A stretch of 22,269 nucleotides of DNA from Candidatus Iainarchaeum sp. (GCA_043816965.1 JBDRHK010000054.1:1-22269); one strand, 5' to 3'. Shown: positions 1 to 19,020, counted from the first letter of the stretch. The notes: generated from the sequence alone by a model not told the origin. Numbers and translations are program-made.

Positions 1-2
1 GC

Positions 3-2746: not shown

Positions 2747-2841
2747 GCAGTAGTCAATCTATTTTAAGTAAATTTTACGGCTTTGCACAAAAACTATATT
2801 CTGCACAAAAAGGGGTTAAAGTCATATAATCCAATTTAGAT

Positions 2842-3829: not shown

Positions 3830-3923
3830 ACAGATATTCTGCTAAGGTGTTATATAAAGGGCGAGGACCTAGCAAACCCTCGAAAAATCACACAAAAAAG
3901 GGTTTTTAAGGTTTAATTATTAT

Positions 3924-4490: not shown

Positions 4491-4605
4491 AAGTTCAAAA
4501 TTTGCACAAAAACCCCTGTTTGGAATCCAAATTGTAATCCCTTTATGTGCAAAGGCAAATTTTACGAAAGATTTATTAATATCTATAGCTATTATGTTCT
4601 GTTAT

Positions 4606-4737
4606 ATGTCACACAGTAAAAAAGTAACAACCATTATGATAAGCCCAAAAACCAGGGATAATCTCAAAGATCTTGGAAAAAAAGGAGAAACGTACGAAGA
4701 AATAGTCGTGCGCCTCATAAAAGCGTATATTAAATAG
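4606..4737 (+). CDS. Small ribbon-helix-helix protein, archaeal antitoxin/CopG-like (43 aa)
   Basis: Manual translation MSHSKKVTTIMISPKTRDNLKDLGKKGETYEEIVVRLIKAYIK*; RHH pattern TTI.IS..T...L..LG.KGETY..I..RL; TTTATTAA at 4572-4579. Confidence 0.8.
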   Translation: MSHSKKVTTIMISPKTRDNLKDLGKKGETYEEIVVRLIKAYIK

Positions 4738-4755
4738 TTTCCAACAAGATTATTA

Positions 4756-4832
4756 TGGCTCAGGGTATGTGGAACTGACGATGATACTGAGTGTCAACGA
4801 TGAAGAGAGATGGGCGGACTGAACCTGAGCCA
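4756..4832 (+). ncRNA. Box C/D-like sRNA; predicted guide for 16S rRNA C1402 (E. coli numbering)
   Basis: 9-bp terminal stem TGGCTCAGG (4756-4764)/CCTGAGCCA (4824-4832); CTGA boxes at 4775, 4787, 4819; C-type box ATGAAGA (4800-4806) + 12-nt guide GAGATGGGCGGA + box D CTGA. GAUGGGCGG pairs with conserved 16S CCGCCCGUC (1399-1407, one G-U). The 5' box C is not clearly identifiable. Confidence 0.6.
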
Positions 4833-4877
4833 AAAGCAAACCCAAGTCCATCATACATAGAGGGTCTAAGTGTTCAT

Positions 4878-4928
4878 CTGACGATGATACTGAGCGTCAG
4901 CGATGAAGAGAGATGGGCGGACTGAGGC
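4878..4928 (+). repeat. Second copy of the 48-nt sRNA body joined to the cassette-type right flank GGC; first array junction
   Basis: 4878-4925 matches 4775-4822 at 46/48 positions; contains hairpin CTGACG/CGTCAG; ends CTGA-GGC like the cassette sites; lacks the terminal stem. Confidence 0.85.
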
Positions 4929-4995
4929 GAAATATCCTAAACAGATCAATTAGTGACAAGGACTTTTCACGTTTCCTTCTTCTATCGCAATAAAA

Positions 4996-5667
4996 TTATT
5001 TTGTTTTAAGTATAGTCAAAACTCCTGATTCTTCATAAAAGTATTTTCCTGGTTCTTTAAGTAAGAACTTAATATTTTTCAGATTAGGTAAATTAAATTT
5101 TCCCTTCCCATCAAAACCTATATATCTGTCAATTACTATTCTGCCACCTTTTTCAAGAAGAGGAATATAATTTTTTACTAATGAATCAATAACATCGCGG
5201 CGGGCACTAACGCGAGGTATAATTATTAAGTGGAATTTCCCGATGTCTTTTGAAGGGGGCCTTAACAAGTTAATATTCTTTTTTTTCATCAACCCCTGCT
5301 CGACCCACAAAAAAACTTTCTTGACCAACCTTGGCCCTGTGTCTCTTCCTTTCTCCGGGTAATCAATATCTCCAATAACATAATTTTTGGGATGCAAACC
5401 ATAATTCTTAATCAAATGTTCTGCAAGTCTGCCACTTTGAGCGCCAATTTCAAGAACCTTAACCTTATCTGGCCCACCAACTAATTCAGACAATTCATGG
5501 ATCCTAGAATCAAGTGACATAACTTTCATTAGAAACGAAATTTTTGCAGAGAATCTTCCAGTCAAATTGTCAGGGTGTCTGCGCCAAGGATACCGTCTTC
5601 GGAGGTTCTCCTCCTGGGCTTCGCCTCCCAATTCGGGCCTATGACGTTTTTGACGGTTTGAACCCAT
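4996..5667 (-). CDS. Class I SAM-dependent methyltransferase-like protein (cassette 1, inverted)
   Basis: KVLEIGAQSG motif I, acidic GDID, FHLII strand and LLEKGGRIVI. ATG at 5667 preferred over TTG 5679 because TTTATATT (5691-5698) lies about 24 nt upstream. Confidence 0.65.
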   Translation of the reverse strand: MGSNRQKRHRPELGGEAQEENLRRRYPWRRHPDNLTGRFSAKISFLMKVMSLDSRIHELSELVGGPDKVKVLEIGAQSGRLAEHLIKNYGLHPKNYVIGDIDYPEKGRDTGPRLVKKVFLWVEQGLMKKKNINLLRPPSKDIGKFHLIIIPRVSARRDVIDSLVKNYIPLLEKGGRIVIDRYIGFDGKGKFNLPNLKNIKFLLKEPGKYFYEESGVLTILKTK

Positions 5668-5763
5668 AAACAAAAACAAATCTCAAACTAAATATAAATA
5701 ATTCGGGAAGTTCAAACCCCTATTTATACATTTTTATCCCCCATTTTCCCATGGTAACTAACT

Positions 5764-5797
5764 CCTCATCTTTCGGCTAAGATGGGCGGACTGAGGC
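5764..5797 (+). repeat. Cassette boundary site
   Basis: CCTCATCTTTCGGCTAAGATGGGCGGACTGAGGC. Confidence 0.95.
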
Positions 5798-5800
5798 TAT

Positions 5801-5841
5801 TGTTCACTTATTGTAAACATTATGTTTATAAATAGTTAACA
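5801..5841 (+). promoter_or_regulatory. Promoter/operator of the MNT-HEPN cassette
   Basis: TTTATAAA TATA box embedded in four GTWWAC-like boxes at 11-bp spacing (5801, 5812, 5823, 5834); conserved at 12718-12758. Confidence 0.6.
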
Positions 5842-5855
5842 TAATAATATTAACT

Positions 5856-6410
5856 ATGAATAGACTACCCAAGCTTTTAACGCCTTTTAATTTAAAAATT
5901 CTTGAGATGCTTATTGATGAAAACATTTCTGTTAGGGATTTGGCAAAAAAAATTAAATGTTCTCCCGCCAAAATAACGCAATTCATTAAATTATTCAAAA
6001 AAGATAATTTAATCAAGACCAGTAAAGAAAAGAACAAGAAGATTCTAATTTTAAATAAAGAAAACCCGGTAATAAGGCAAATTATTTCCCTGCTATTTAT
6101 TGACAGAATTGTCACATCAAAAACTTTTTCCGGGCTGAAAAAGAATGCAAAATCAATCGGTGTTTATGGAAGTGTTGTTGAAGGCAGTTTAGACAAGAAA
6201 AGCGATATTGACCTTTGGGTTCTATCTGACATAAAAACTCCCCTGGTTGATGCAGGCAATTTAAGGATAAAGCTGAGTGAGGAGATCGGAAGAGAGGTAA
6301 GTATAAAATTTTTTACGCCCAAAGACATTAATAATCTTAAAAAGAAGGATGAAATATTTTACAACGAGATTGAATATAAATCAAAAATAATATATGGTGA
6401 AGGCTTTTGA
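5856..6410 (+). CDS. HTH-fused minimal nucleotidyltransferase (MNT) antitoxin, copy 1
   Basis: N-terminal wHTH (SVRDLAKKIKCSPAKITQFI); GS-x10-DxD motif GSVVEGSLDKKSDID. Confidence 0.9.
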   Translation: MNRLPKLLTPFNLKILEMLIDENISVRDLAKKIKCSPAKITQFIKLFKKDNLIKTSKEKNKKILILNKENPVIRQIISLLFIDRIVTSKTFSGLKKNAKSIGVYGSVVEGSLDKKSDIDLWVLSDIKTPLVDAGNLRIKLSEEIGREVSIKFFTPKDINNLKKKDEIFYNEIEYKSKIIYGEGF

Positions 6411-6847
6411 AAAAGAGTAAAGTTGATGAATGCTTTGAACAAGGTTTGCTAAAAAGGATAAAACCTAATTTGAAGTATGCGGAGCAAAGTATCAAACAGG
6501 CAGAACATTTCTTGGATGAAGCACAGGAGTTAATAGAAAGAGAAATCAAGGATATGGCATTCATTGCCATTTATAGTGCATCCTTTCACGCCGCAAGAGC
6601 ATTGCTTTTTAGGGACGGAATAAAAGAAAGGAGCCATTACTGCGTTAGTAAATACCTTGAAGAGAAATATACTGGGAAAGAACTTATCAGCATGAGGCAG
6701 GCAATTATTCTGGATTCATTAAGGGACAAAAGGAATTCAATACAATATTCCCTCGAAAGAACAGAACTGGAAGAAGACCTGAATGAAATTTACGATGAAA
6801 TTGAATGCTTTCTTGAAAAAGTAAAAGAGATTATTAAAAAGAATTAA
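6407..6847 (+). CDS. HEPN-domain protein, MNT partner, copy 1
   Basis: AFIAIYSASFHAARALL...ERSH...RNSIQY; 4-bp TTGA overlap with the MNT stop. Confidence 0.9.
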   Translation: MKKSKVDECFEQGLLKRIKPNLKYAEQSIKQAEHFLDEAQELIEREIKDMAFIAIYSASFHAARALLFRDGIKERSHYCVSKYLEEKYTGKELISMRQAIILDSLRDKRNSIQYSLERTELEEDLNEIYDEIECFLEKVKEIIKKN

Positions 6848-6849
6848 CG

Positions 6850-6880
6850 CCTCATCTCAGGACGGAAAATACGGGGACTA
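6850..6880 (+). repeat. Decayed cassette boundary site
   Basis: CCTCATCT starts 2 bp after the HEPN stop, the same offset as the intact site at 13767, followed by CAGGACGG...GGACT. Confidence 0.65.
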
Positions 6881-6883
6881 AAA

Positions 6884-7561
6884 ATGATTCGAAAGTCTTC
6901 AAGAAGAAATATTAGAAATCAAGGTTACTCTTTTAGAGGAACTACATCTGATTTGCAGGGATTATCTTCAGGCGCTGTTTTTAAAAATTTCAGAAAAGCA
7001 GGACTCCCAGTAAAACCAATTGAAGCCAAAGCAACTGCTGAAAATCTAAAATCCGCGGCGCTTGAAGCAGCCAAAAAACTGGCAAACGGAGAATCCGGAT
7101 TTTTTCATTTTGAAACTCCTCGAGGCACAATGCCGTGTATAATTATGAAAAAGGGAGATAAACTCCATATTAATCAGGCTCGTTTGAGACATAATATTGT
7201 AAAGTCTAGTGCCCCTTTTGAACACTTGATGAACATATTGAAAAGAGGTTTTAGGGGAGACTATCCTCCGAATGTCGTGATTAAAGATGGGAAAAGGCCT
7301 ATGCCTAATCTGTCAGCAAATGCTTATGAAAACGCAACAGTTGCAGGAGATAGATATACTCTCGAGATGGTTTCTCCAGTGACTGATTTGGATAAGGAAT
7401 CAATGCATGCGTTCGTCAAAAATGCCGACAACTCACAAATATCTGGCGTAATAGTCAAAATTGATTCAAAAACACCTAAACCCAAGATTGAAGAAAAAAC
7501 TAGATTTTATCAAGCACTTTCAGAAGAGTACGGAGTTCCTTTCCATATAAAAGTAGGGTAA
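6884..7561 (+). CDS. Hypothetical basic protein, possible ADP-ribosyltransferase-like fold (cassette 3)
   Basis: 225-aa ORF filling the inter-site interval; LRHN...HLMNILKRGF loosely resembles the H..L..IL..G start of H-Y-E type ART folds. Function is tentative. Confidence 0.6.
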   Translation: MIRKSSRRNIRNQGYSFRGTTSDLQGLSSGAVFKNFRKAGLPVKPIEAKATAENLKSAALEAAKKLANGESGFFHFETPRGTMPCIIMKKGDKLHINQARLRHNIVKSSAPFEHLMNILKRGFRGDYPPNVVIKDGKRPMPNLSANAYENATVAGDRYTLEMVSPVTDLDKESMHAFVKNADNSQISGVIVKIDSKTPKPKIEEKTRFYQALSEEYGVPFHIKVG

Positions 7562-7586
7562 ATATTTTTTCAGAATATCTAGAAGT

Positions 7587-7620
7587 CTTCATCTTTCGGG
7601 CAAGATGGGCGGACTGAGGC
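7587..7620 (+). repeat. Cassette boundary site
   Basis: CTTCATCTTTCGGGCAAGATGGGCGGACTGAGGC. Confidence 0.95.
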
Positions 7621-7623
7621 GTC

Positions 7624-7641
7624 GTTATATTTAAATATAAC
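7624..7641 (+). promoter_or_regulatory. Palindromic operator overlapping the TATA box
   Basis: Perfect 18-bp palindrome GTTATATTTAAATATAAC; identical at 10677-10694. Confidence 0.65.
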
Positions 7642-7669
7642 CTTGTATATACATTATTAGTGATGCGAA

Positions 7670-7939
7670 TTGAATTCCCTGAAAGGCCGTTTCCTGTGGA
7701 GCAGGCATGCGCTGAGAGAGGCAGTCGAGGATTCTTTGAAGCCAAGTGATGTGGAAAAGTCACTGTCCAAATGCATGGTGATGGAAAGCGGGCTGGATAA
7801 GGAGAAGGCAGTTTGCAAAGTAGAAAACATTTATTGCACAGTAATATTCGCAAGGATGAAATTTGGAATTAAAATCATAACCTGCTGGAAGAGCAGCAAT
7901 TGGGAAATCAAGGTCTATGATGCGGAGGTGAAAGGATGA
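7670..7939 (+). CDS. DUF4258-like (RelE/BrnT-fold) putative toxin, copy 1
   Basis: WSRHALRE...L.PSDVEKSL...IKIITCW pattern; ATGA overlap with the downstream zinc-finger gene. Confidence 0.75.
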   Translation: MNSLKGRFLWSRHALREAVEDSLKPSDVEKSLSKCMVMESGLDKEKAVCKVENIYCTVIFARMKFGIKIITCWKSSNWEIKVYDAEVKG

Positions 7940-8268
7940 AATGTGTTTGCGGAGCCAACATGGAAAAGATAAAAACCGAGATGGACTTCCATGACGGGCA
8001 GGTTATAGTTAGAAACGTTACTGCGTTCTACTGCCCCAAATGCAAAGAGGAGTTATTCGACTCCAAGGAAGGGGACAGGATTTTTGGCCAGGTCTCGAAA
8101 CTTAATCTTGTGCAGCCATTCGAATCAAGGAAAAAAATCACAAAGGTCGGCAACAGCTTTGCCATTCCGGTTTCCAAGGAAATTGCCGACTACATGCAGA
8201 TAAAAAAAGGCGGCGACATAAAGATAAAAGTGCAGAACCAAAAAAGGCTTGTTGTTGATTTGGCATAA
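7936..8268 (+). CDS. YgiT/MqsA-type zinc finger fused to AbrB/MazE DNA-binding domain (putative antitoxin), copy 1
   Basis: MKCVCG...VRNVTAFYCPKCKE; C-terminal RKKITKVGNSFAIPVSKEIA..MQIKKG. Confidence 0.85.
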   Translation: MKCVCGANMEKIKTEMDFHDGQVIVRNVTAFYCPKCKEELFDSKEGDRIFGQVSKLNLVQPFESRKKITKVGNSFAIPVSKEIADYMQIKKGGDIKIKVQNQKRLVVDLA

Positions 8269-8270
8269 TT

Positions 8271-8304
8271 CCTCATCTTTCAGTCAGGATGGGCGGACAG
8301 AGGT
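8271..8304 (+). repeat. Cassette boundary site
   Basis: CCTCATCTTTCAGTCAGGATGGGCGGACAGAGGT, 2 bp after the stop codon. Confidence 0.9.
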
Positions 8305-8347
8305 ACATAAAAACCTTTTTATGTAGTTTATCGCATACTTTTATCAG

Positions 8348-8566
8348 GTGAAAGAGTTGAAATTGTCAGCCATAATTAGTAGGGAAGATGGGGAATATGT
8401 TGCCTTGTGCCCTGAACTGGATGTTGCTTCCCAGGGTGATTCTATAGAGGATGCTCTGGCTAATTTGAAGGAAGCGGTAGAATTGTACTTGGAAGACGAG
8501 AAGGACATAAAACTTTCTGAGGCAAGCCCCTTTGTTACGACTTTTGAAGTGAACGCCAGTGCCTAA
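8348..8566 (+). CDS. hicB: HicB-family antitoxin (short form)
   Basis: EDGEYVALCPELDVASQGDSIEDALANLKEAVELYLE. Confidence 0.92.
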   Translation: MKELKLSAIISREDGEYVALCPELDVASQGDSIEDALANLKEAVELYLEDEKDIKLSEASPFVTTFEVNASA

Positions 8567-8789
8567 GTTTCCGGTTCTCTCAGGCAAGGAAGTAATCAAA
8601 GCACTGGAAAAAGCAGGCTTTAAGTTTGTCAAGCAGAGGGGAAGCCATGTAAAGCTCAGGAATCTTGATTTAGGAGAAAAGAAGACAGTAATTGTCCCGC
8701 TCAAGCCTGTAATCAGGACCGGCACGATGAAATCAATTCTTAGGCAAGCGCACTTAACCTTCGAAGAATTCCAGAAGTTCTTGAAATAA
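8559..8789 (+). CDS. hicA: HicA-family mRNA interferase toxin
   Basis: PVLSGKEVIKALEKAGF..VKQRGSHVKL...VIVP...IRTGTMKSILRQA. Confidence 0.92.
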   Translation: MPKFPVLSGKEVIKALEKAGFKFVKQRGSHVKLRNLDLGEKKTVIVPLKPVIRTGTMKSILRQAHLTFEEFQKFLK

Positions 8790-8822
8790 TGTGGGTAATC
8801 AACAAGTGTTGTGAATGTCCAA

Positions 8823-8855
8823 CTGACCAATGACGATAGATGGGCGGACTGAGGC
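8823..8855 (+). repeat. Boundary site of the sRNA type
   Basis: CTGA-CCA-ATGACGA-TAGATGGGCGGA-CTGA-GGC (D'/C'/12-nt guide/D); lacks the CCTCATCTT arm. Confidence 0.85.
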
Positions 8856-8914
8856 GAAAACTGATTGAATAGATTTAAAATCAATTTAGTAACATTTATT
8901 GTGAGGACTCACAA

Positions 8915-9541
8915 ATGAATTGGAAAGATTCAATGCGACCCTTTCAAATGTTATGGGGAAAGTCTACAGAAACTTTTTTGATTGTATTTATTGGGTTAAT
9001 TACATTCGTTTTTTTAGTTCTTACTCTTTCTTCTTTTTTTGGCCTTATTTTTGACCCCGTTTCAGTTCCAGAAATGCAAGGAACTTCTTCTCAAATGGTG
9101 ATTCAATTATTTTCATTTAAAGCGGGCTTATTTTTATTCATGTTTTTGATTTTACTTCCTTTTTTGTTTATGTTCTTTTTTTCTTGGAAACCCCCTTTTT
9201 TGGAAATTAATGAAAAAGGAATAAAAGTACCAAATTATCTATCGCTTATGATTCCAAACAAAAGGCATTATTTTTTCAGTTGGCAAGACATATCTGAGAT
9301 TAATATATGGCGGCCTTCTGAAAGCCCTACCTCCGGCGATAAATTGGCAATGAAACACAAGACGTCTTTAGCATTTTTTGGGGGGCAAACAGCTGCACTG
9401 GATGTTGACCATGTTAGAATTTGTAAAGGCGATTTTTGTAAAACCCGGCTTATGAAAGATAAAAAAGGTTTCATTAATTCCTGTAAAATGTCTGGGATAG
9501 AATTTAAAGAAGAAAAAAGAAAATTAATTTATAAAAAATAA
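8915..9541 (+). CDS. Membrane protein, two TM helices plus soluble C-terminal domain (possibly bacterial PH-like; cassette 6)
   Basis: Two Phe/Leu-rich helices followed by LEINEKGIKV...FSWQDISEI. Confidence 0.7.
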   Translation: MNWKDSMRPFQMLWGKSTETFLIVFIGLITFVFLVLTLSSFFGLIFDPVSVPEMQGTSSQMVIQLFSFKAGLFLFMFLILLPFLFMFFFSWKPPFLEINEKGIKVPNYLSLMIPNKRHYFFSWQDISEINIWRPSESPTSGDKLAMKHKTSLAFFGGQTAALDVDHVRICKGDFCKTRLMKDKKGFINSCKMSGIEFKEEKRKLIYKK

Positions 9542-9570
9542 TCTTGCAACAATTAATGCCGTAACTAATT

Positions 9571-9604
9571 CCTCATCTTTCGGGCAAGATGGGCGGACTG
9601 AGGC
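9571..9604 (+). repeat. Cassette boundary site
   Basis: CCTCATCTTTCGGGCAAGATGGGCGGACTGAGGC. Confidence 0.95.
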
Positions 9605-9645
9605 AAAAAGGAAAAACTTATATTCTTGTTAAACATTATTTTTTC

Positions 9646-10554
9646 ATGGGAGATTTACTTTGCATTGGGATTCCTGCGAGGAATGAGGAAGAATCCATTG
9701 AGGCTACTATACGGTCTATTGTTGAATCAGATGCATGGAAAGATTCCTCAAAGTCAGGCAGGGAGATGATTGTCTGCGTGAACGACTCAACTGACAGAAC
9801 TGCCGAAATTGTTAGAAATCTCCAAAAAGAAATTCCTGAAATCAAGCTTATCGAAAATAAGGAACCTGGAAAAAACCTGGCTATCAATACCATTATCAAA
9901 AACTCCAGCAGAAAAGCAGATGTTATCTATTTCTCTGATGCAGATGTTGTTGTTGCGAAGGATTCGATAGGCAAAGTTGCAGGAGAAGTAAGACGAGACA
10001 GAAAGATTGATTTCGCTGCGCCAGTTCCTGTTCCTACTTCTGTTTTTACCGAAACCAAAAAAAGGAGACCTGTTGCAGCATTCTATGCCGAAGGTTCAGA
10101 GATAGGTATAAAACATAAAATCTATAGGCTAACTGGCATGGGCTTTGCAGCGAGGAAGAGTGTCTTAGTTAAAAAGCCTCTGCCTGAGCACCCTTATGTA
10201 GGCGATGACAGGTATATCAACCTTGAATATAAAGGCAGAATAAAAGTTCTTTATGATGCCGAAGTATATTTCAGGCCCCCCAGCCTGAAGGACCATATGA
10301 GGCAAAGGATTAGGCATGCAGTTGAAAGGCGAACCCTCTTTAAGATTCGTCCGGATTTGAGGGAACCCTATATTTCTGAGGCTAAAAAGATACGTTCAAG
10401 GGAGATCAGCCATTTTAGGGAACTTAGCCTGAAGGGCAAGTTAGGTTTCCTTCCGATAGCGGCTGCCGAGCCTCTTGAAAAATTAATAGCAAAGTTCAAG
10501 AGAGCTGGGACCTGGTCAAAGATACAAAGCACAAAAGCAAGAAGGAAAGTTTGA
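9646..10554 (+). CDS. Glycosyltransferase family 2 (cassette 7)
   Basis: IGIPARNEE, VNDSTDRT, GKNLAIN, FSDAD (DxD), GDD, RQRIRH. Start moved from 9589 (an ATG inside the repeat) to ATG 9646, downstream of a TATA at about 9618. Confidence 0.9.
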   Translation: MGDLLCIGIPARNEEESIEATIRSIVESDAWKDSSKSGREMIVCVNDSTDRTAEIVRNLQKEIPEIKLIENKEPGKNLAINTIIKNSSRKADVIYFSDADVVVAKDSIGKVAGEVRRDRKIDFAAPVPVPTSVFTETKKRRPVAAFYAEGSEIGIKHKIYRLTGMGFAARKSVLVKKPLPEHPYVGDDRYINLEYKGRIKVLYDAEVYFRPPSLKDHMRQRIRHAVERRTLFKIRPDLREPYISEAKKIRSREISHFRELSLKGKLGFLPIAAAEPLEKLIAKFKRAGTWSKIQSTKARRKV

Positions 10555-10637
10555 ACTATGTCCTGAGTTCAATAATATTGTTTACAATAATGGCATTCTA
10601 TCCCTATACTTTATCTCTCAACCAGCTGTAACTAACT

Positions 10638-10671
10638 CCTCATCTTTCGGCTAAGATGGGCGGACTGAGGC
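10638..10671 (+). repeat. Cassette boundary site
   Basis: Identical to 5764-5797, including upstream GTAACTAACT. Confidence 0.95.
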
Positions 10672-10722
10672 GACGAGTTATATTTAAATATAACATTGTA
10701 CATACATTATTAGTGATGCGAA

Positions 10723-10992
10723 TTGAATTCCCTGAAAGGCCGTTTCCTGTGGACCAGGCATGCGCTGAGAGAGGCAGTCGAGGATTCTTTGAAGCCAAGT
10801 GATGTGGAAAAGTCACTGTCCAAATGCATGGTGATGGAAAGCGGGCTTGGCAAGGAGAAGGCAGTCTGCAAAGTAGAAAACATTTATTGCACAGTAATAT
10901 TCGCAAGGGTGAAATTTGGGATTAAAATCATAACCTGCTGGGGAAGCAGCAATTGGGAAATAAATGCTTATGATGAGGAGGTGAAAGGATGA
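10723..10992 (+). CDS. DUF4258-like putative toxin, copy 2
   Basis: 7 aa differences from 7670-7939 by manual comparison. Confidence 0.75.
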   Translation: MNSLKGRFLWTRHALREAVEDSLKPSDVEKSLSKCMVMESGLGKEKAVCKVENIYCTVIFARVKFGIKIITCWGSSNWEINAYDEEVKG

Positions 10993-11321
10993 AATGTGTT
11001 TGTGGAGCCAACATGGAAAAAATAAAAACTGAGATGGACTTCCATGACGGGCAGGTCATAGTTAGAAACGTTACTGCGTTCTACTGCCCAAAATGCAAAG
11101 AGGAGTTATTTGACTCCAAGGAAGGGGACAGGATTTTTGGCCAGGTCTCGAAACTTAATATTGCACAATCGTTTGAATCCCGGAAGAAAATAACAAAGGT
11201 CGGCAACAGCTTTGCAATTCCGGTGTCCAAAGAAATTGCGGACTATATGCAGATAAAAAAGGGCGAAGACATAAAGATAAAAGTGCAAAACCAAAAAAGG
11301 CTTATTGTTGATTTGGCATAA
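10989..11321 (+). CDS. YgiT zinc finger-AbrB putative antitoxin, copy 2
   Basis: 5 aa differences from 7936-8268 by manual comparison. Confidence 0.85.
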   Translation: MKCVCGANMEKIKTEMDFHDGQVIVRNVTAFYCPKCKEELFDSKEGDRIFGQVSKLNIAQSFESRKKITKVGNSFAIPVSKEIADYMQIKKGEDIKIKVQNQKRLIVDLA

Positions 11322-11323
11322 CC

Positions 11324-11357
11324 CCTCATCTTTCAAGCAGGATGGGCGGGCTGAGGC
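11324..11357 (+). repeat. Cassette boundary site
   Basis: CCTCATCTTTCAAGCAGGATGGGCGGGCTGAGGC, 2 bp after the stop codon. Confidence 0.92.
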
Positions 11358-11439
11358 TATAAAAGACTTAAAATTAACGAAATATTAATATTTAGTCAGT
11401 TATAGGTATATTTATTAAGTTTTTGGCGCGGTTTATAGT

Positions 11440-12666
11440 ATGGTTTCACGTTTGGATGTTTTTTTGGTTGCGGGGCTCTATCCTGAAATTTCATGCGCAG
11501 ATATAGTCAGGAAAATAGGTAAGAAACAAACATCCTATAATGCCGCATATAACCTTCTCATGAGCCTGAAAAATGAAGGCCTGGTTACAGAGTCAAAAGA
11601 ACGGTTCAGCGTGTCAGAAACAAAGAAAGCCAGCATTCTCCTCAAATTGGTTTACTTCTGCTTTAAGAATGGCATTGACTACAACAAGATTATTACAGAA
11701 AAAGCAGCCGAATTCGTGAAACTTGGTCTTGGGGAAGGCAAAATAACAGGTTTGCCATTTGACACAAAAACAGTCAAGAGAATTGTCCGTCATCTTTCAA
11801 AAAATGGCCTTGCTATTGTAGAGTCAAAAAGACCGTTTTTGTGCAGAATTGTCCCATCACAGTTTACTGAATTGCTCGCGGAATATTTTTTCGGGAAAAT
11901 CAAGGTCAAATGCCCGTTACTCGTTGATTGCCTTGACGAAGGCTCTGTTGACTCCAAGCTTCAAAAACACTTTTCGGAATTCAAGGGAATTGAAAAACAA
12001 AAATTTGATTTTGACGAAATAGGATTCATTTACGTGAGTCTTTCACTCGAAGGAAATACCCTGACTTTATCAGAAACCGAAAGAATGATTAGGCAAAATA
12101 TAGCTCCTGCCTCAAAACCAGCGAAAGACGCGCAACAGGTTCTTGATTACAAAAAGGCTCTTGACGGCTTCATTTTTTCCAAAAGCGCAATAACTGAAGA
12201 CTCTATTCTTGACTTCCACAGGACTGCGATGAATTCATTGGCAGCTGGTGCTGGGCAATTTAGGATAGATAATGTGAGGATAAAAGACAACCCGAATTTT
12301 AAAACCCCGGAATGGCGGGAACTTCCCGGCTTGTTAAGGACTTTTTTCGAGAATATTAAAACCCAAAAAAAGGAAAAAACCACGGCTGTCGGGATAGTTG
12401 AAGAGGCTGCTTTTTTGCACAATGAATTTCAGCGCATGCACCCATTCATTGACGGCAACAGTAGGACATCAAGAGCAATATTCCTAAAAGTGCTGACCCA
12501 AAACAATTTTCCCCTGATAAAAATACCTGTGGGTTTTTCCGACCAATACATGCTGCTCACAAAACTAAGCGAAAAAAGAGACGACAAAAAGTTCGCCTTG
12601 CTGATGAAACAGATTGCCCTTGAAAACCTGAAACACTTGGCAAAAAAAATCGAGCATGAATTCTGA
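11440..12666 (+). CDS. Fic-family protein with N-terminal wHTH region (cassette 9)
   Basis: Fic motif HPFIDGNSRTSR; autoinhibitory SLSLEGN motif; GQFR; N-terminal helix-turn-helix-like region. Confidence 0.9.
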   Translation: MVSRLDVFLVAGLYPEISCADIVRKIGKKQTSYNAAYNLLMSLKNEGLVTESKERFSVSETKKASILLKLVYFCFKNGIDYNKIITEKAAEFVKLGLGEGKITGLPFDTKTVKRIVRHLSKNGLAIVESKRPFLCRIVPSQFTELLAEYFFGKIKVKCPLLVDCLDEGSVDSKLQKHFSEFKGIEKQKFDFDEIGFIYVSLSLEGNTLTLSETERMIRQNIAPASKPAKDAQQVLDYKKALDGFIFSKSAITEDSILDFHRTAMNSLAAGAGQFRIDNVRIKDNPNFKTPEWRELPGLLRTFFENIKTQKKEKTTAVGIVEEAAFLHNEFQRMHPFIDGNSRTSRAIFLKVLTQNNFPLIKIPVGFSDQYMLLTKLSEKRDDKKFALLMKQIALENLKHLAKKIEHEF

Positions 12667-12680
12667 CACGCGAAATATTT

Positions 12681-12714
12681 CTTTACCTTTCGGGCAAGAT
12701 GGGCGGACTGAGGC
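12681..12714 (+). repeat. Cassette boundary site (left arm degenerate)
   Basis: CTTTACCTTTCGGGCAAGATGGGCGGACTGAGGC. Confidence 0.92.
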
Positions 12715-12772
12715 TATTGTTTACTTATTGTAAACATTATGTTTATAAATAGTTAACATAACAATACTAACT

Positions 12773-13327
12773 ATGAACAGAATACCCAAGCTTTTAACCC
12801 CTTTCAACCTAAAGATTTTTGAGCTGCTTATTGATGAAAACATCTCTGTTAGGGATTTGGCAAAAAAAATCAAATGTTCCCCGGCCAAAATAACGCAGTT
12901 CATTAAATTATTCAAAAAAGACAATTTAATTAAAACCAGCAAAGAAAAGAACAGGAAGATTCTAATTTTAAATAAAGAAAACCCGGTAATAAGGGAGATT
13001 ATCTCCCTGTTGTTTATTGATAAAATTGTCACGTCAAAAACTTTTTCCGGGCTGAAAAAGAATGCAAAATCAATCGGCGTCTATGGGAGTGTTGTTGAAG
13101 GCAGTTTAGACAAGAAAAGCGATATCGACCTTTGGGTTCTGTCCGACATAAAAATTCCCCTGGTTGATGCAGGCAATTTAAGGATAAAGATGAGTGAGGA
13201 ACTCGGGAGAGAGGTAAGTATAAAATTTTTCACGCCCAAAGACATCAATAACCTTAAAAAAAAGGATGGAATATTTTACAACGAGCTTGAATATAAATCA
13301 AAAATAATATGTGGTGAAGGATTTTGA
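12773..13327 (+). CDS. HTH-MNT antitoxin, copy 2
   Basis: 12 aa differences from 5856-6410 by manual comparison; GSx10DxD intact. Confidence 0.9.
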   Translation: MNRIPKLLTPFNLKIFELLIDENISVRDLAKKIKCSPAKITQFIKLFKKDNLIKTSKEKNRKILILNKENPVIREIISLLFIDKIVTSKTFSGLKKNAKSIGVYGSVVEGSLDKKSDIDLWVLSDIKIPLVDAGNLRIKMSEELGREVSIKFFTPKDINNLKKKDGIFYNELEYKSKIICGEGF

Positions 13328-13764
13328 AAAAGAGCAAGATTGACGAATGCTTTGAACAAGGTTTGCTAAAAAGGATAAAACCTAATATGAAGTATGCGGA
13401 GCAAAGTATCAAACAGGCAGAACATTTCCTGGATGAAGCACAGGAGTTAATAGAAAGGGAAATCAGGGATATGGCATTCATTGCCCTGTATAGTGCATCC
13501 TTTCACGCCGCAAGGGCATTGCTTTTTAGGGACGGAATAAAAGAAAGGAGCCATTACTGCGTTAGTAAATACCTTGAAGAGAAATATACGGGGAAAGAAC
13601 TTATCAGCATGAGGCAGGCAATTATTCTGGATTCATTAAGGGACAAAAGGAATTCAATACAATATTCCCTCGAAAGAACAGAAATGGAAGAAGACCTGAA
13701 TGAAATTTACAATGAAATTGAAGGCTTTCTTGAAAAAGTAAAAGAGATTCTTAAAAAGAATTAA
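13324..13764 (+). CDS. HEPN-domain protein, copy 2
   Basis: 8 aa differences from 6407-6847 by manual comparison. Confidence 0.9.
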   Translation: MKKSKIDECFEQGLLKRIKPNMKYAEQSIKQAEHFLDEAQELIEREIRDMAFIALYSASFHAARALLFRDGIKERSHYCVSKYLEEKYTGKELISMRQAIILDSLRDKRNSIQYSLERTEMEEDLNEIYNEIEGFLEKVKEILKKN

Positions 13765-13766
13765 CC

Positions 13767-13800
13767 CATCACCTATCGGCTAAGATGGGCGGACTGAGGC
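13767..13800 (+). repeat. Cassette boundary site (left arm degenerate)
   Basis: CATCACCTATCGGCTAAGATGGGCGGACTGAGGC, 2 bp after the stop codon. Confidence 0.92.
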
Positions 13801-13828
13801 GCTGGAATTTTTTGAGTTTGAATAAAGG

Positions 13829-13859
13829 ATATATTTAAATATATAGCCGGCTATATATT
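13829..13859 (+). promoter_or_regulatory. TATA box with overlapping palindromic operators
   Basis: ATATATTTAAATATAT (13829-13844) and perfect 22-bp AATATATAGCCGGCTATATATT (13838-13859), just before the RHH ATG. Confidence 0.65.
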
Positions 13860-13863
13860 ATTC

Positions 13864-14079
13864 ATGGCTACTTTAAGTGCAGATGTTACCTCTCAAATGG
13901 TCAGATGGATTGACGAAAAAGTCACTGCCGGCTTTTATAAAAGCAGGAGCGAGGTAATTAGAGAATTGCTTAGGGAGAAGATAACCGGGGAAAATTATTC
14001 CAAGGCCGCCCTGTCTGAAAAAGTCTTAAGAAAGATTTGGGATAATGAGAATGATGAAGTTTGGTCTTCTTATTTGTGA
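13864..14079 (+). CDS. Ribbon-helix-helix antitoxin (CopG/ParD-like)
   Basis: WIDEKVTAGFYKSRSEVIRELLRE; acidic/aromatic tail IWDNENDEVW; directly upstream of a PemK toxin. Confidence 0.85.
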   Translation: MATLSADVTSQMVRWIDEKVTAGFYKSRSEVIRELLREKITGENYSKAALSEKVLRKIWDNENDEVWSSYL

Positions 14080-14082
14080 TTT

Positions 14083-14412
14083 GTGATGAAGCAATTGAGT
14101 GTTGTTTTAGCCAGATTTCCATTCACTAACCAGATTGATTACAAGATAAGGCCTGCCCTGATAGTTTCAAATGACAAGTTTAACAAGGCACATAATTTCT
14201 GCTGGGTCTGCCCAATAACTTCCAAAACCACTTTAAAAGAATTTGAAGTTGAAATTCCTGCAAGTGAATTCAGTGGCGAACTGAAAACCAGGAGTTATGT
14301 CCGCGTTGATACAATTGCCTCAATGGAGAAAAGCCTGTTTCTCAAGGAAATAGGCAAAATTAGTTTCGAGTTATTTAAAAGGCTGAAAAAACAAGTGATA
14401 CTGAATTTGTGA
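14083..14412 (+). CDS. mazF: PemK/MazF-family endoribonuclease toxin
   Basis: VLARFPFTNQIDYKIRPALIVSND...VCPITS...SYVRVDTI...KEIGKI; the start may be ATG 14086. Confidence 0.9.
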   Translation: MMKQLSVVLARFPFTNQIDYKIRPALIVSNDKFNKAHNFCWVCPITSKTTLKEFEVEIPASEFSGELKTRSYVRVDTIASMEKSLFLKEIGKISFELFKRLKKQVILNL

Positions 14413-14434
14413 ATTAAAAAAAGGCGAATTAGCC

Positions 14435-14468
14435 CCTCATCTTTCAAGCAGGATGGGCGGACTGAGGC
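14435..14468 (+). repeat. Terminal cassette boundary site
   Basis: CCTCATCTTTCAAGCAGGATGGGCGGACTGAGGC; last base overlaps the stop of the convergent gene. Confidence 0.95.
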
Positions 14469-14860
14469 TATTTGAATATTAATGAAAACAGGTTCAGCCA
14501 GTCGGCAATCAGGAAGATTATTATTGAGAGTATGATAATTTTCAGTAAATTTATGCCGTGCTTTTTTTCCTCTTCCTTTTTGGATTCGCCCTCGCCAGAT
14601 TCTTTTTCTTCCTGTTCCGCTTCATCAGCCTCTTCGCGCTGGAAGGATTCAACCATCTCCTGCAGGGCATCAATTTCCTTTTCCAAATCCCATCTAACGG
14701 CTTTTAATATGACAACAGTAAGGGCGAAAGAATAAAGGTAGGAAAACAGGTTGCTAACAACAATCTGGTCGACAAGGGAAACCATCAATACCATTATTAC
14801 GGCAAAACTGAGAATTTCCCCTGGAGTGTTTAACTCCAAAACTTGCCTGAATTTGCCCAT
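14468..14860 (-). CDS. Hypothetical membrane protein (3 TM, acidic loop)
   Basis: Hydrophobic helices flanking an E/K-rich loop; TTTAATATA about 25 nt upstream. Confidence 0.7.
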   Translation of the reverse strand: MGKFRQVLELNTPGEILSFAVIMVLMVSLVDQIVVSNLFSYLYSFALTVVILKAVRWDLEKEIDALQEMVESFQREEADEAEQEEKESGEGESKKEEEKKHGINLLKIIILSIIIFLIADWLNLFSLIFK

Positions 14861-14954
14861 AGAAACAAGTTATCCCGAAGAGATATATTAAATTAACGAT
14901 TTGGCATAAAACTCACCAAAAGCTTTTTACATTCTTTTCCCCCAAATTAATACT

Positions 14955-15287
14955 ATGTGGGCAGATGCGATAATTGTGATTGCCTTTACGGCGATTTATT
15001 TCCTCAGCTCATTTAAGGGCCATAAGGAGAAGGAATATATCCTCCCGGCAATGTTTTTGGTTCTTGCATTGTTTTCCCTTGAGGAGCCCTATGTTTTTTT
15101 GTATGTCCTTGCGGCAGCTTTCGTGTTTTTAGGCCAAAGGGGAATGGGCAAGGGAAATGGCGGGAAAGAACCTGTTGAGGAAACAGAAGAGAATGAGGCT
15201 GGGGAAGAGGAAGAAATGGAAGAGGGAGCCGGTGAAGGGCACGGCGGCGGGCATGAGGAATCTGCACACGGCGCTGGCCACCACTGA
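14955..15287 (+). CDS. Small membrane protein with Glu/Gly/His-rich tail
   Basis: Three short hydrophobic segments, then EETEENEAGEEEE...GHGGGHEESAHGAGHH. Confidence 0.7.
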   Translation: MWADAIIVIAFTAIYFLSSFKGHKEKEYILPAMFLVLALFSLEEPYVFLYVLAAAFVFLGQRGMGKGNGGKEPVEETEENEAGEEEEMEEGAGEGHGGGHEESAHGAGHH

Positions 15288-15448
15288 TAATGAATCCTGA
15301 TTCTAAAAAGCGATTAAAAATAAGGGATGGTGCTGCCAGCATTTCCGCTTCAGAGAAGCCTACTTTACTAGCCCCCCACCATCATATGTATTCTTGGAGG
15401 AAAGATTTATTAATCTGAATGGGTGAAATCAATATTGGCTAATTATTA

Positions 15449-16615
15449 GTGCCTTTTTCTGATTTGGGGATTTTTGTGCCAGAGGACAGATTAAACGGAG
15501 CCAAGAGCCTAATCCTAAAGATAGCCATAGGTGGCGCAATACTGGTTTTCCTTTACCTCTACGGCAGCCTTATTTGGGACCTACTATGGAACGGCTTTTT
15601 CACAAATGAGGGCTCTTTCCAGTCCTTTGTCCCGGTTCTCCTGAGCGTGCTTTTTTTCATCGTGGGCACGGAAATATTCCTAATACTAACCAGATATGTA
15701 ATCTCGAAATACCTTGAGAACAGGGGGAAAAAGAAGGAGATAAAGATTATACTGACCCTCTACACCTACCTTGTCTGGGGGGTTGTCGGGCTTTTCCTTA
15801 TCTCAACAATCTTCAAGGACATCGGTGCATTGCTCACTTCAATCGGCCTTATCGGTTTCGGAATCACTTTCGCCCTGCAGAAGCCGATACTGAATTTTGT
15901 GGGCTGGCTCACCATAGTGATAACAAAGCCATTTAACATCGGCGACAGGATAGAGGTTCAGGAGATAAGGGGGGATGTGCTTGGCATCCACACAATGTAC
16001 ACCACAATTCAGGGGACAAGGCTCAATTCCCATGAGAGGTCGGAGAAGATAATAACCCTCCCAAATGAGCTGATTCTGACAAATGCGATAATCAATTACT
16101 CAAAAAAGGGCGAAATCTATGCTGATGAGGTGATAGTTTCAATCACCTATGGGAGCAACTGGAGAAAGGCCTCAGAAATGCTTGCAAAGGTCACGAAGAG
16201 CGTAATTTCCAAATACTTTGCTGAGGGGGTGGGTAATGCCCAGTCCGACAAGAAATCATGGCAGGAGGCGATAGGCCTGCTCCAGGCGGCCTCAAAGAAA
16301 TTGCGCAGGGGTGTGTTTAAGGAATCGGTGAAGGAGAAAATAGACCTTATGAAATCCGCCGACAGCGTTGCCGAGGCGGAAATCCCTGAGCCGCAGATTC
16401 AAATGTCGCTGGCCGACTCATCCATAAACCTGAGCTCCCTCTATCATACCGACCTCCATTCAGTCAGGGTGACAAAGCATGAGATAACTAAGGCCTTCTA
16501 CGAGGAGGTTGAGAGGTCAAAGGACATCGAGATTGCATACCCGCACATGCAGCTTGTTTACGGGGACAATCTTCGGAGGGCCAATCCCAATGACATCCGC
16601 CAGAAAAAATTGTAG
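15449..16615 (+). CDS. mscS: Small-conductance mechanosensitive channel family protein
   Basis: GLIGFGITFALQKPILNFVG...KPFNIGDRIEV...GDV...TLPN...IINYS...IEIAYP. Confidence 0.92.
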   Translation: MPFSDLGIFVPEDRLNGAKSLILKIAIGGAILVFLYLYGSLIWDLLWNGFFTNEGSFQSFVPVLLSVLFFIVGTEIFLILTRYVISKYLENRGKKKEIKIILTLYTYLVWGVVGLFLISTIFKDIGALLTSIGLIGFGITFALQKPILNFVGWLTIVITKPFNIGDRIEVQEIRGDVLGIHTMYTTIQGTRLNSHERSEKIITLPNELILTNAIINYSKKGEIYADEVIVSITYGSNWRKASEMLAKVTKSVISKYFAEGVGNAQSDKKSWQEAIGLLQAASKKLRRGVFKESVKEKIDLMKSADSVAEAEIPEPQIQMSLADSSINLSSLYHTDLHSVRVTKHEITKAFYEEVERSKDIEIAYPHMQLVYGDNLRRANPNDIRQKKL

Positions 16616-16620
16616 CCTGC

Positions 16621-17346
16621 CTACTGCGTGATTTTCGCCAGCAGGAATTGGTCCTGGTTTTTGAAAATTTTGGGGAGTTCGCCAACCAAACCAATTTTCC
16701 CTGATTTGATTATAAGCGCCCCCTGCACATCCTTTGCCTGTTTTATCCAGTTGAGCGCAGAAGCAATATCTTCCTCCCCCTTCACCCTGTTTGCAAGCGC
16801 GGTGGCAAAAGCATCTGCAACAGCGCCGCTTTCCGCAAAAACTGTTGCCAAGTCGCACTTGCCTAAACTCGTGCTGTGCCCAAACTTCCCGCTGCTGGAA
16901 CAGAAAGCGATTTCCGTTCCTTTTTCCAGCTCAAATGCAAGTTTGTTGCTGATTTTATTTTCCCCGGCAAAAATACCGGCCCTGAAATTCCTGTCAACAA
17001 TTGCAAAGCAGTCCCCGCCATTTTCAACAACCGCAATTTTCGCCCCATTTTCCATCATTGCCCTTACAGCAGATTCAGCAATTGCCCCGGCAACAGCGGC
17101 CATTGGCCCAACTCCTGCGAGACAAGCGGCAGAAGCCATTTTCTTAACAATTTCCGGGGCACTTCCACCAACACTTAAAGGCCCAAATGAAGAATTGAAT
17201 TCAGGATTCCCGGAAATATAATTCTCAATCTCCTTCCTGCGCTGAAAAATATCCTCCTTTGCAGCATCAATCGCTTCCCCAGAATCAGAAATTATTTTTA
17301 CAATTGTTTCCTTGATTGTAAATTCTTCCCTGAGCAAATTTTCCAT
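16621..17346 (-). CDS. UPF0280 / ApbE-like protein (COG2122)
   Basis: AGVGPMAAVAGAIAE, VVENGGD, CSSSGKFGHSTSLGKCD, ADAFATALAN. Confidence 0.9.
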   Translation of the reverse strand: MENLLREEFTIKETIVKIISDSGEAIDAAKEDIFQRRKEIENYISGNPEFNSSFGPLSVGGSAPEIVKKMASAACLAGVGPMAAVAGAIAESAVRAMMENGAKIAVVENGGDCFAIVDRNFRAGIFAGENKISNKLAFELEKGTEIAFCSSSGKFGHSTSLGKCDLATVFAESGAVADAFATALANRVKGEEDIASALNWIKQAKDVQGALIIKSGKIGLVGELPKIFKNQDQFLLAKITQ

Positions 17347-17754
17347 CTAAAAATTCACCCTAATTGCTTTAACAGGGCAGGCATCAACACAAAGTTCACA
17401 GGCCATGCACTTATCCTTTTCAAATTTAACTTCCCAAATCTCCCTGTCAACTGAAATTGCATCATGCGGGCAGACGCTTACACAGGCCCCGCAATCAGTG
17501 CATGTTTCCCTGTTCCTTTCAATTCTCTTTTCCAAGGGAATAATTTCAACCCTTTCCTTCACCAAATAGTCCAGGCCCTTCTTTATTTTCTCATCACTCC
17601 CTTCAAGTTCTACCCACAACTCACCAGTTTCCTCAGGAGTGACCCTTGCCTTGAAAATATTAACAACCAAATCATAATCCTTGATCAGATGATAGGCATA
17701 TGGTTTTGAAACACCATTTTGCGGGAATTTCAGCAGCAGCTTTTTCTTGGCCAT
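17347..17754 (-). CDS. NIL domain + 2[4Fe-4S] ferredoxin, partner of aspartate semialdehyde sulfurtransferase (MA1822-like)
   Basis: N-terminal NIL domain (YHLIKDYDLVVNIFKARV); CTDCGACVSVCP and CMACELCVDACP. Confidence 0.9.
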   Translation of the reverse strand: MAKKKLLLKFPQNGVSKPYAYHLIKDYDLVVNIFKARVTPEETGELWVELEGSDEKIKKGLDYLVKERVEIIPLEKRIERNRETCTDCGACVSVCPHDAISVDREIWEVKFEKDKCMACELCVDACPVKAIRVNF

Positions 17755-18945: not shown

Positions 18946-19020
18946 TAGATAATAAGGTCCGTGCTAATTAATAATAGTTTTTGATTAAATTATTCTTATT
19001 AGAATTAAACGCCCTTAATG

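Follow-up and report, generated by a model that had tools for sequence, protein, structure and literature searches.

What kind of element strings short gene cassettes together in an archaeon, each closed by the same short repeat, with no recombinase gene at its side? The question is raised by a stretch of DNA from Candidatus Iainarchaeum sp. (GCA_043816965.1 JBDRHK010000054.1:1-22269), 22,269 nucleotides long and referred to below as the window. The genome to which it belongs is assembled to 1.34 Mb in 109 contigs and is 86% complete. The original prediction had described positions 4878–14468 as an integron-like cassette array built on a 34-bp site that is not attC and served by a recombinase encoded elsewhere. 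Here, we find that the constant half of every site matches the 3′ end of a C/D box small RNA (sRNA) gene, that a congener carries this gene without any array, and that the same cassettes stand in different contexts in related genomes. Probably, the cassettes have accreted at this sRNA gene by site-specific recombination.

A cassette array delimited by short direct repeats

The 34-nt consensus has nine matches in the window at ≤3 mismatches, all on the plus strand, compared to 0 expected from 100 shuffles. The full sites start at 5764, 7587, 8271, 9571, 10638, 11324, 12681, 13767 and 14435. Their 17-nt 3′ core, GATGGGCGGACTGAGGC, is also present without the 5′ arm at 4809, 4912 and 8839, and a repeat finder places the 3′ half of the site in a 30-nt repeat family of 11 copies, of which those at 4800, 4903 and 8830 are without the 5′ half. 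A further, decayed site was read from the sequence after the stop codon at 6847. The array (4930–14468) is thus delimited by nine full sites, two half-sites and one decayed site, and consists of 11 units of 551–1357 bp, a count obtained by dividing a 1823-bp interval at the decayed site. The units contain a single gene or a two-gene operon apiece and share one orientation in 10 of 11 cases, the exception being the unit at 4930–5797, whose open reading frame (ORF) lies on the minus strand. The predicted layout is therefore borne out, as are the four sites that begin 2 bp after a TAA stop (6847, 8268, 11321, 13764), which we checked in the sequence. All sites are on the sense strand, 2–90 nt past stop codons, and no oligo-T tract follows them.

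The cargo comprises two winged helix-turn-helix (wHTH)-MNT/HEPN pairs, two DUF4258-like/YgiT-MqsA-like pairs, HicAB, a ribbon-helix-helix (RHH)/PemK pair, a Fic protein and a family-2 glycosyltransferase (GT2). Three ORFs of the array have no family match. TATA-like hexamers are located 27–45 nt upstream of the start codon in 8 of the 10 forward cassettes, inside the 41–82 nt that follow the core, so most cassettes look self-expressed.

Other readings of the repeat itself were considered and rejected. At ≤2 mismatches the core has 13 matches in the whole genome, 12 of which are on the window contig. It is therefore not a genome-wide repetitive extragenic palindromic (REP) or terminator motif, and the scatter over the genome that the original prediction had set against itself is absent. 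A tRNA origin was dismissed, since a tRNA search of the window found none. A CRISPR-like reading was dropped because the intervals measure 0.55–1.36 kb and hold expressed-looking genes; no cas search was made. The site is not attC, as had been proposed: the region 4878–14468 contains 0 attC-type RYYYAAC...GTTRRRY pairs spaced 40–130 nt apart (2.0 +/- 2.0 in 200 shuffles), and the site boundaries read GAGGC/N, with no conserved GTT.

The core is the 3′ end of a C/D box sRNA gene

An exact search with the 17-mer, using one genome per species, returned 92 stretches, with about 70 expected by chance (596 Gb, two strands, 4^17 words). The bacterial matches lie in unrelated contexts. In Hadarchaeota, Thermoproteota, one Hodarchaeaceae and one Thermoplasmata metagenome-assembled genome (MAG), and many Iainarchaeum MAGs, the 17-mer ends a pattern of C, D′ and C′ boxes with the spacing of an sRNA: GCC-RTGATGA-(12 nt)-CTGA-(loop)-GATGAYGA-(12 nt ending GATGGGCGGA)-CTGA-GGC. 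The relatives of the window genome have the boxes of a C/D box sRNA in the order GCC-GATGATGA-12 nt-CTGA/CAGA-loop-GATGACGA-12 nt-CTGA-GGC. The copy in a same-genus genome (G152, locus L077) matches the Rfam family sR2 over the full model length (29.6 bits, E 0.007; gathering score 42), while the copies of the window score 21–23 bits (21.2 bits for copy 2). Weak matches to sR2 and to the adenosylcobalamin (AdoCbl) model are all that the Rfam scan of the window returned. The invariant 3′ half of every site, the direct repeat that recurs at each distal junction as the 17-nt core, accordingly comprises the D guide, the D box and the terminal stem (GGC) of a conserved archaeal C/D box sRNA. The original prediction was correct in that the site is not attC and missed this identity.

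Both predicted guides fit 16S ribosomal RNA (rRNA), as assessed on the 16S of relatives, the rRNA genes of the window genome itself being unassembled. The D guide forms 10 contiguous Watson-Crick pairs with ACCGCCCATCAA in four of five relatives (nine and one G-U in the fifth), and the D′ guide forms 11 with GTCATCGTCAGC, also in four of the five. By the N+5 rule and E. coli numbering, we take the target of the D guide to be the equivalent of 16S C1402. The sRNA is thus a predicted dual guide for 16S rRNA methylation. The decoding-centre stretch of 16S reads ACCGCCCATCA in L145 and in L142–L144, and the sRNA guide fits this A variant perfectly; CCCGUCA is the widespread form.

The window contains three sRNA-like pieces, at 4755–4832, 4871–4929 and 8828–8855. 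The first (copy 1) is a putative sRNA with an atypical C box, and the second (copy 2) has no C box. From TCTGACG onward, copy 2 is nearly identical to the intact sRNA of G152. By analogy with attI, copy 2 (4871–4929) may be the landing site at the head of the array. Copies 1 and 2 form a tandem at 4755–4929, the upstream one with an extended terminal stem and the downstream one heading the array. The same tandem pair is found in a genome from a different family of the phylum (G111; L129 4080-5151, with the copy-1 architecture at L129 4144), and the leader of copy 2, ACATAGAG…CT.A, is common to both genomes.

An empty site in a congener and exchange of cassettes among relatives

In G152 (L077), a single intact sRNA is present with 0 array units. 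About 10 nt after its GAGGC, blastn identity to the window resumes, at 82% to 14924–15145 and then at 84% to 16624–18995. Since the sRNA is joined directly to the right flank there, the segment from 4930 to ~14915, about 10 kb, is extra in the window genome. G152 thus presents a precise empty site, as expected of an integrative element.

In a second relative, G165 (L055), the GT2 cassette (92.7% identity to that of the window) comes immediately behind the sRNA, and the Fic cassette (86%) is next. These two cassettes adjoin in G165 and are separated in the window by a toxin-antitoxin (TA) cassette. In a base-level alignment, the homology of the GT2 cassettes spans the 3′ untranslated stretch as well as the 5′ arm and ends exactly after GAGGC; past this core, the two genomes contain different cassettes.

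We clustered all inter-core segments from 21 loci. The Fic cassette family is found in seven arrays with at least five different left neighbours, the HicAB cassette in six (on the five other contigs at 76–80% identity to unit 5), and a second MNT/HEPN type in three. The Fic cassette measures 1357–1415 bp in six of the seven arrays and begins, in five genomes, with (T/C)ATAAAGGACT immediately behind the core, and the start of the GT2 cassette is likewise constant in two. Another landing pad is found in G066 and G068, where an sRNA-like half-site (C′-box-like sequence and core) lies ~15 nt past the stop codon of herA and is followed by a Fic cassette in one of the two genomes and by a different cassette in the other (L027 5040-5104; L090 minus strand, around 10664). 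The HerA helicase gene of G066 (L027 1970-5068) has an intein, identified by a Pfam Intein_splicing match.

Array content and order therefore vary among relatives as the original prediction had expected, with a co-oriented array in one genome, no unit in its congener, and shared cassettes reordered elsewhere. Sequence comparison indicates that the array units are discrete and mobile on evolutionary timescales.

Anatomy of the sites

To describe the sites, 35 distinct cassette sites from 14 genomes were aligned, with the identical sites of L100 and L131 counted as G107. There is almost no variation in the 3′ 17 nt. At least two classes, CCTCATCTTTCGG… and CCTTGGTCTTTAGAG…, can be distinguished in the 5′ 20 nt, and for either class of arm two pairing registers with the 3′ arm are possible (the pairing partner of the arm is GGACTGAGG). 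In one register, the 5′ arm pairs with GGA-C-TGAGG in 87% of 280 cells (31–59% with a slid partner), and in the other with AAGATGGG-C-GGA in 81% of 385 cells (42–56% with a slid partner). About a quarter of the paired cells are G-U or U-G, which can pair only on the top (RNA-sense) strand. The 5′ arm is thus under constraint to mirror the core as an imperfect inverted repeat. The invariance of the 3′ arm means that no compensatory changes are available to support a fold. A hairpin defined by energy was rejected, as the folding z-scores are unremarkable.

Sites of the window type also contain a CATCTT-6-AAGATG palindrome with 9-bp arms and a 6-bp spacer. Neither the second site class (CCTTGGTCT...) nor the sRNA landing site has this palindrome. 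Both classes of 5′ arm coexist in G068, where the Fic cassette keeps its class-A arm, suggesting that the arm travels with the cassette.

Distribution of the core

At ≤1 mismatch, the core is found in 58 of 215 genomes of the phylum, mostly as a single copy. Two or more cores on one contig and strand occur in 14 genomes including that of the window, and the most cores, 10 each, are in the window and G068. The cores of the cassette sites match the variant of the resident sRNA in G162, G013, G136 and G120, and are mixed in G107 and G142. Among metagenome contigs, five match the hairpin-type pattern, and two of them show the sRNA, one cassette and a site; an integrase was found on none of the five. 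Viral contigs gave 0 exact core matches.

The record of G068 is titled Chloroflexi bacterium, yet the genome is classed in the phylum of the window and has Iainarchaeum-type sRNA arrays on L024, L060, L067 and L090. In G136 and G120, the sRNA is followed by ORF-less 84-bp mini-units, each a 67-nt segment with a small hairpin plus the core, of which there is one copy in G120 and two in G136 (L134 1401-1701; L135 4944-5060). Three contigs of G017 (L136 36, L137 36, L138 20) break exactly at the sRNA core and diverge beyond it, which suggests assembly collapse at a site with multiple contexts, i.e. an unassembled array or population variation.

Recombinases in the genome and in relatives

No Phage_integrase domain was found by Pfam among the 33 proteins of the window, and there is no recombinase in or beside the array. 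The genome encodes three tyrosine recombinases: XerA (278.5 bits to NF040815), a 411-aa integrase on contig C81 located 60 nt after tRNA-Glu, and a 486-aa integrase with a C-terminal zinc ribbon on contig C74. None of them reaches the TIGR02249 cut-off for IntI (265), the best being XerA at 214.1 bits. Family searches for serine recombinases, HUH-Y1, IS110 and reverse transcriptase (RT) each returned 0 in the genome, so tyrosine recombinases are the sole class found of those searched. Of the recombinase types that had been proposed for a search, the tyrosine type alone has thus come up.

Two relatives from different families of the phylum, G102 and G114, provide a link that the original prediction missed. 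In both, the sRNA core is followed ~50–80 nt downstream by a co-oriented tyrosine integrase gene of the 414-aa type. These integrases are 62% identical to each other, and their nearest paralogue (42%) is located directly after tRNA-Ser. An integrase gene placed just behind an RNA gene, be it tRNA-Ser, tRNA-Glu or the sRNA, is the classical arrangement, and the C/D sRNA gene appears from gene context to be used by one branch of this integrase family.

A larger element may be present in G101. There, a window-type site (…CGTCTTTCGGAGCA plus core) lies between genes of the type IV secretion system (T4SS) type and the chromosomal ilvD. The T4SS side encodes a TrbC pilin, a PrgI-like protein, a VirB4/TraG-like ATPase and a DDE transposase. 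The sRNA of G101 lies at the end of its contig, and the letters that follow it agree with those in G102. The sRNA contig and the T4SS contig, which are unjoined, could represent a single element like an integrative and conjugative element (ICE) inserted in the sRNA gene. The far contig end was considered as a source of the integrase and attL; neither was found there.

Proposed mechanism and alternatives

Our favored explanation, in which we have moderate confidence, is that the array consists of cassettes accreted by site-specific recombination at an attachment site in the sRNA gene, and that the recombinase is supplied in trans. The attachment core would be the final 17 nt of the sRNA gene (D guide, D box and terminal GGC). 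A cassette would consist of a short promoter region, a gene or TA operon, a variable ~17-nt 5′ arm with a loop, complementary to the core, and the core itself. Circular cassettes would be inserted at the sRNA-proximal core by a recombinase from elsewhere, and the same enzyme could excise or reshuffle cassettes between any two direct cores, perhaps to this day. It could read the site as a duplex or as a folded top strand. Each exchange would restore the core, so that selection on the sRNA would keep all sites identical to it.

That the recombinase acts in trans we infer from the lack of a recombinase beside any array. The likeliest enzyme would belong to the tyrosine integrase family that sits directly behind the sRNA gene in relatives; the arrays may also have been served by a transient recombinase of visiting elements, by the host XerA, or by homologous recombination alone. 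The original prediction of a distinct capture and shuffling system thus stands as regards a recombinase that is neither in nor beside the array; no recombinase dedicated to single cassettes has emerged.

Several observations weigh against this explanation. As for the enzyme, ORFs around six related loci gave no Phage_integrase match (0 of 122), and a tyrosine recombinase lies within 4 kb of the core in only 2 of 123 contexts, those of G102 and G114. These two genomes have a single core and no array, so that integrases and arrays do not co-occur: an integrase adjacent to the RNA gene is absent from the window and from every array, and present in the two array-less genomes. The best matches to the G102 integrase in array-bearing genomes are 37–40% identical, no better than the tRNA-targeting paralogues. 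In the G101 element, attL and attR are on different contigs and the integrase is unassembled. The C74 integrase is 32% identical to that of G102 and has no recognisable att repeat alongside; three of its four closest full-length relatives (in G165, G063 and G166, not that in G103) are behind a conserved protein-gene end. C74 was rejected as the enzyme of the array on account of the missing att-like repeat and the position of these relatives behind protein genes. As for the site, compensatory covariation amounts to 0–2 pairs, no better than in shuffles, and the folding energies of the nine window sites are not significant (z −1.41 to +0.49). Circular cassettes, empty-site variants and joints were not found in short, low-depth contigs from three DNA sequencing runs, which contained 0.08–0.18 of the sampled words, and no piece placed a site beside a new neighbour; this result says nothing on excision or expression. 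Finally, homologous exchange between repeats of 17–34 bp would give the same junctions.

The alternative that survives best, itself unlikely, takes up this last point. The sites would primarily be RNA-level 3′-end signals, for example stabilising or processing hairpins that hide a leftover D box, and the shuffling of cassettes would follow as a by-product of homologous recombination or gene conversion involving the repeats and the sRNA gene. The placement of all sites on the sense strand just past stop codons fits such a role, as do the wobble pairs (about a quarter of the paired cells) that allow pairing on the top strand only. It would also explain why no recombinase is near any array, and the 8 of 10 cassettes with their own TATA-like box would be separate transcription units needing 3′ ends. 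However, an RNA signal would neither track the variant of the resident sRNA nor keep 17 of 17 nt as they are in the sRNA in genomes between which cassette identity is only 76–80%. Insertion is precise both at the sRNA 3′ end and at the sRNA-like half-site after herA, and integrases occupy the same position in relatives. In addition, the folding energy is unremarkable and the sites lack a following oligo-T.

We regard it as improbable that the units are what is left of repeated insertions of large elements with an integrase into the sRNA gene, every one of them later reduced by deletion to one cargo gene beside its attR. Such elements would explain the T4SS-bearing DNA that abuts a site of this kind in G101, the integrase genes at attL in G102 and G114, the failure of arrays and integrases to co-occur, and the one decayed site and two truncated sRNA fragments of the window. 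Random deletions should leave ragged left ends; instead, the start of the Fic unit is fixed in five genomes and that of GT2 in two, and cassette families are whole and constant in length, as the Fic cassette is in six of seven arrays.

Less probable again is the hijacking of the host XerA, as in IMEX and pdif systems, with the palindrome as a mimic of dif. XerA is encoded in the genome, a host enzyme would explain arrays without a nearby integrase, and the 9-bp arms and 6-bp spacer of the window-type sites have the expected form. Against this idea, neither the sites of the second class nor the sRNA landing site contain the palindrome. Chromosomal CATCTT-N6-AAGATG occurs in 13 of 215 genomes, mostly single and scattered, which is a weak test as the host dif was not identified. 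Finally, a fragment of a classical integron, i.e. a cluster of attC sites lacking an integron-integrase (CALIN), as known from archaeal MAGs, is suggested by the array layout, the cassette size and the enrichment in TA and defence-type genes, and is extremely improbable given a 34-nt, sRNA-derived site without R″/R′ boxes, a best TIGR02249 match that is XerA at 214.1 bits, short of 265, and the available text on archaeal CALINs (PMC9668308), which contains neither 'Iainarchaeota' nor 'sRNA'.

If the cassettes have indeed accreted by site-specific recombination at the sRNA gene, genes for C/D box guide RNAs would join the archaeal targets of integration, so far essentially tRNA genes, and integron-like arrays of single genes could arise from RNA-gene attachment sites without IntI or attC. 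The arrays would offer very small DPANN genomes a route to trade TA and defence genes, and each recombination event would rewrite the 3′ end of a guide RNA for the 16S decoding-centre region. Tied to a conserved sRNA, the 17-nt core could serve as a search handle for arrays and their cargo in metagenomes.

Gene content of the array and its flanks

The features of the window are listed in Table 1.

Table 1. Features of the cassette array and its surroundings (window coordinates).
Feature	Position	Strand	Description
sRNA copy 1	4755..4832	+	Full-length C/D-box-like; 8-bp terminal stem GGCTCAGG/CCTGAGCC; D′ and D guides kept; 3′ end diverged (CTGAACC); C box atypical (…TGTGGAA); linked to copy 2 by repeat pair
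sRNA copy 2	4871..4929	+	Without C box and 5′ stem; retains D′ guide, D′ box, C′ box, D guide, D box and GGC; core 4912-4928; heads array
Unit 1	4930..5797	+	227-aa ORF on minus strand (4996-5679), no family match; site 5764-5797
Unit 2	5798..6883	+	wHTH-MNT nucleotidyltransferase 5856-6410, HEPN 6407-6847 (Pfam Polbeta/NTP_transf_2 and HEPN; PADLOC PDC-M05A/B); decayed site 6850-6883
Unit 3	6884..7620	+	225-aa ORF 6884-7561, no family match; site 7587-7620
Unit 4	7621..8304	+	89-aa DUF4258-like and 110-aa YgiT/MqsA-type zinc-finger antitoxin-like proteins; site 8271-8304
Unit 5	8305..8855	+	HicB-like 8348-8566, HicA 8559-8789; ends in sRNA-type half-site
Unit 6	8856..9604	+	208-aa ORF 8915-9541; site 9571-9604
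Unit 7	9605..10671	+	Family-2 glycosyltransferase (Pfam), probable start 9646, stop 10554; site 10638-10671
Unit 8	10672..11357	+	Second DUF4258-like/MqsA-like pair; site 11324-11357
Unit 9	11358..12714	+	408-aa Fic-domain protein 11440-12666 (Pfam Fic; PADLOC PDC-S04/SoFic); site 12681-12714
Unit 10	12715..13800	+	Second MNT/HEPN pair, 88% repeat identity to first; site 13767-13800
Unit 11	13801..14468	+	RHH antitoxin 13864-14079, PemK/MazF toxin 14083-14412; site 14435-14468
130-aa ORF	14469..14915 (ORF 14468-14860)	-	Between last site and conserved flank; absent from G152
Conserved chromosomal flank	14924..18995		110-aa ORF, 241-aa ORF, NIL-ferredoxin, HcyBio (Pfam; blastn 82-84% to L077)

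Units 4 and 8 are duplicates with 94% identity. The half-site that ends unit 5 (8828–8855) consists of a C′ box, ATGACGA, and the core, and is not of the hairpin type. The ORF of unit 6 encodes a putative membrane protein, to judge from its hydrophobic stretches. In unit 7, both in the window (9588–9646) and in G165 (L055 12389), the core contains an ATG (G-ATG-GGC…) whose frame continues without a stop into the GT2 gene, so ORF callers place the gene start within the recombination site. The Pfam domain of this protein begins at residue 25, in agreement with a start at the later ATG, 9646.

The flanks differ in character. On the right, a 388-aa MscS-type channel gene (15449–16615) lies in an insertion (15146–16623) that is absent from the syntenic stretch of G152 and has no relation to the sites. 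On the left, the sequence flanking the sRNA of G152 corresponds to the start of another contig of the window genome, C100 (1–3617), and not to the window. Positions 1–4870 encode a DUF4352 protein, a TrmB-like protein, a 289-aa HEPN protein and DUF7557, and have a GC content of 0.35–0.37, compared to 0.44–0.49 in the right flank. Foreign origin is probable for this segment too, which would separate the old flank from the array.

Comparison with known systems

Archaeal integrons and CALINs have been described by Ghaly et al. 2022 (PMC9668308), and a 2021 review of archaeal tyrosine recombinases (PMC8371274) presents tRNA genes as the main targets, with 24 mentions in its accessible text and 0 of 'sRNA'. 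Full-text searches found no report of sRNA genes as attachment sites or of cassette arrays in Iainarchaeota.

The present array resembles integrons in its fixed landing site at the head, in its co-oriented units of one gene or operon with sites at their 3′ ends, in its TA and defence cargo, and in the different order of cassettes in different genomes. The partners are also asymmetric in both, a simple landing site and a cassette site that is an imperfect inverted repeat. In contrast to integrons, the site here is 34 nt long without RYYYAAC/GTTRRRY boxes, its conserved arm matches the 3′ end of a C/D box sRNA, no IntI or other recombinase gene is found beside the landing site, and most cassettes have a TATA-like promoter of their own. 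The wobble pairs favor the top strand here, whereas integrons use the bottom strand. The lack of attC boxes, the 34-nt site and the missing IntI mean that the locus fails membership of the integron family.

Elements that integrate at the 3′ ends of tRNA genes through tyrosine integrases share with this array a core coinciding with the 3′ terminus of a stable RNA gene, which integration restores. Their layout, with int directly after the RNA gene, is seen in G102, in G114 and in the tRNA-Ser and tRNA-Glu paralogues. Repeated use of one site gives tandem direct repeats, and integrase-less elements depend on supply in trans; tandem accretion of such integrase-less, att-flanked elements is exemplified by the cis-mobilizable elements (CIMEs) of streptococcal ICEs. 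The present array differs in that the target is a C/D box sRNA, in that single-gene cassettes of 0.55–1.36 kb, 11 in a row, take the place of multi-kb islands, and in that, outside the 34-nt site, no arm-type sequences are common to the cassettes.

Small modules, often TA pairs, with short sites and a recombinase that is not module-encoded are also a feature of integrative mobile elements exploiting Xer (IMEX) and of the pdif modules of Acinetobacter plasmids, both of which exploit XerCD/dif. Here, in contrast, all sites are direct repeats, the arm-spacer-arm palindrome is not in all of them, and no dif-like chromosomal counterpart was found (13 of 215 genomes in the weak test noted above).

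More tentatively, the array can be viewed as a DPANN analogue of integrons with an independent origin. Its landing site would be the 3′ end of an essential guide RNA gene for rRNA methylation, its 34-nt sites would be read by the fold of the top strand, its self-expressed TA and defence cassettes would be exchanged between families of the phylum, and its recombinase would not have to be linked to the array. The two unrelated classes of 5′ arm in the single genome G068 are consistent with recognition of a fold and not of a sequence. Whatever the enzyme, the locus is a variant of integrons and of integrative elements that target RNA genes, and not a member of the integron family.

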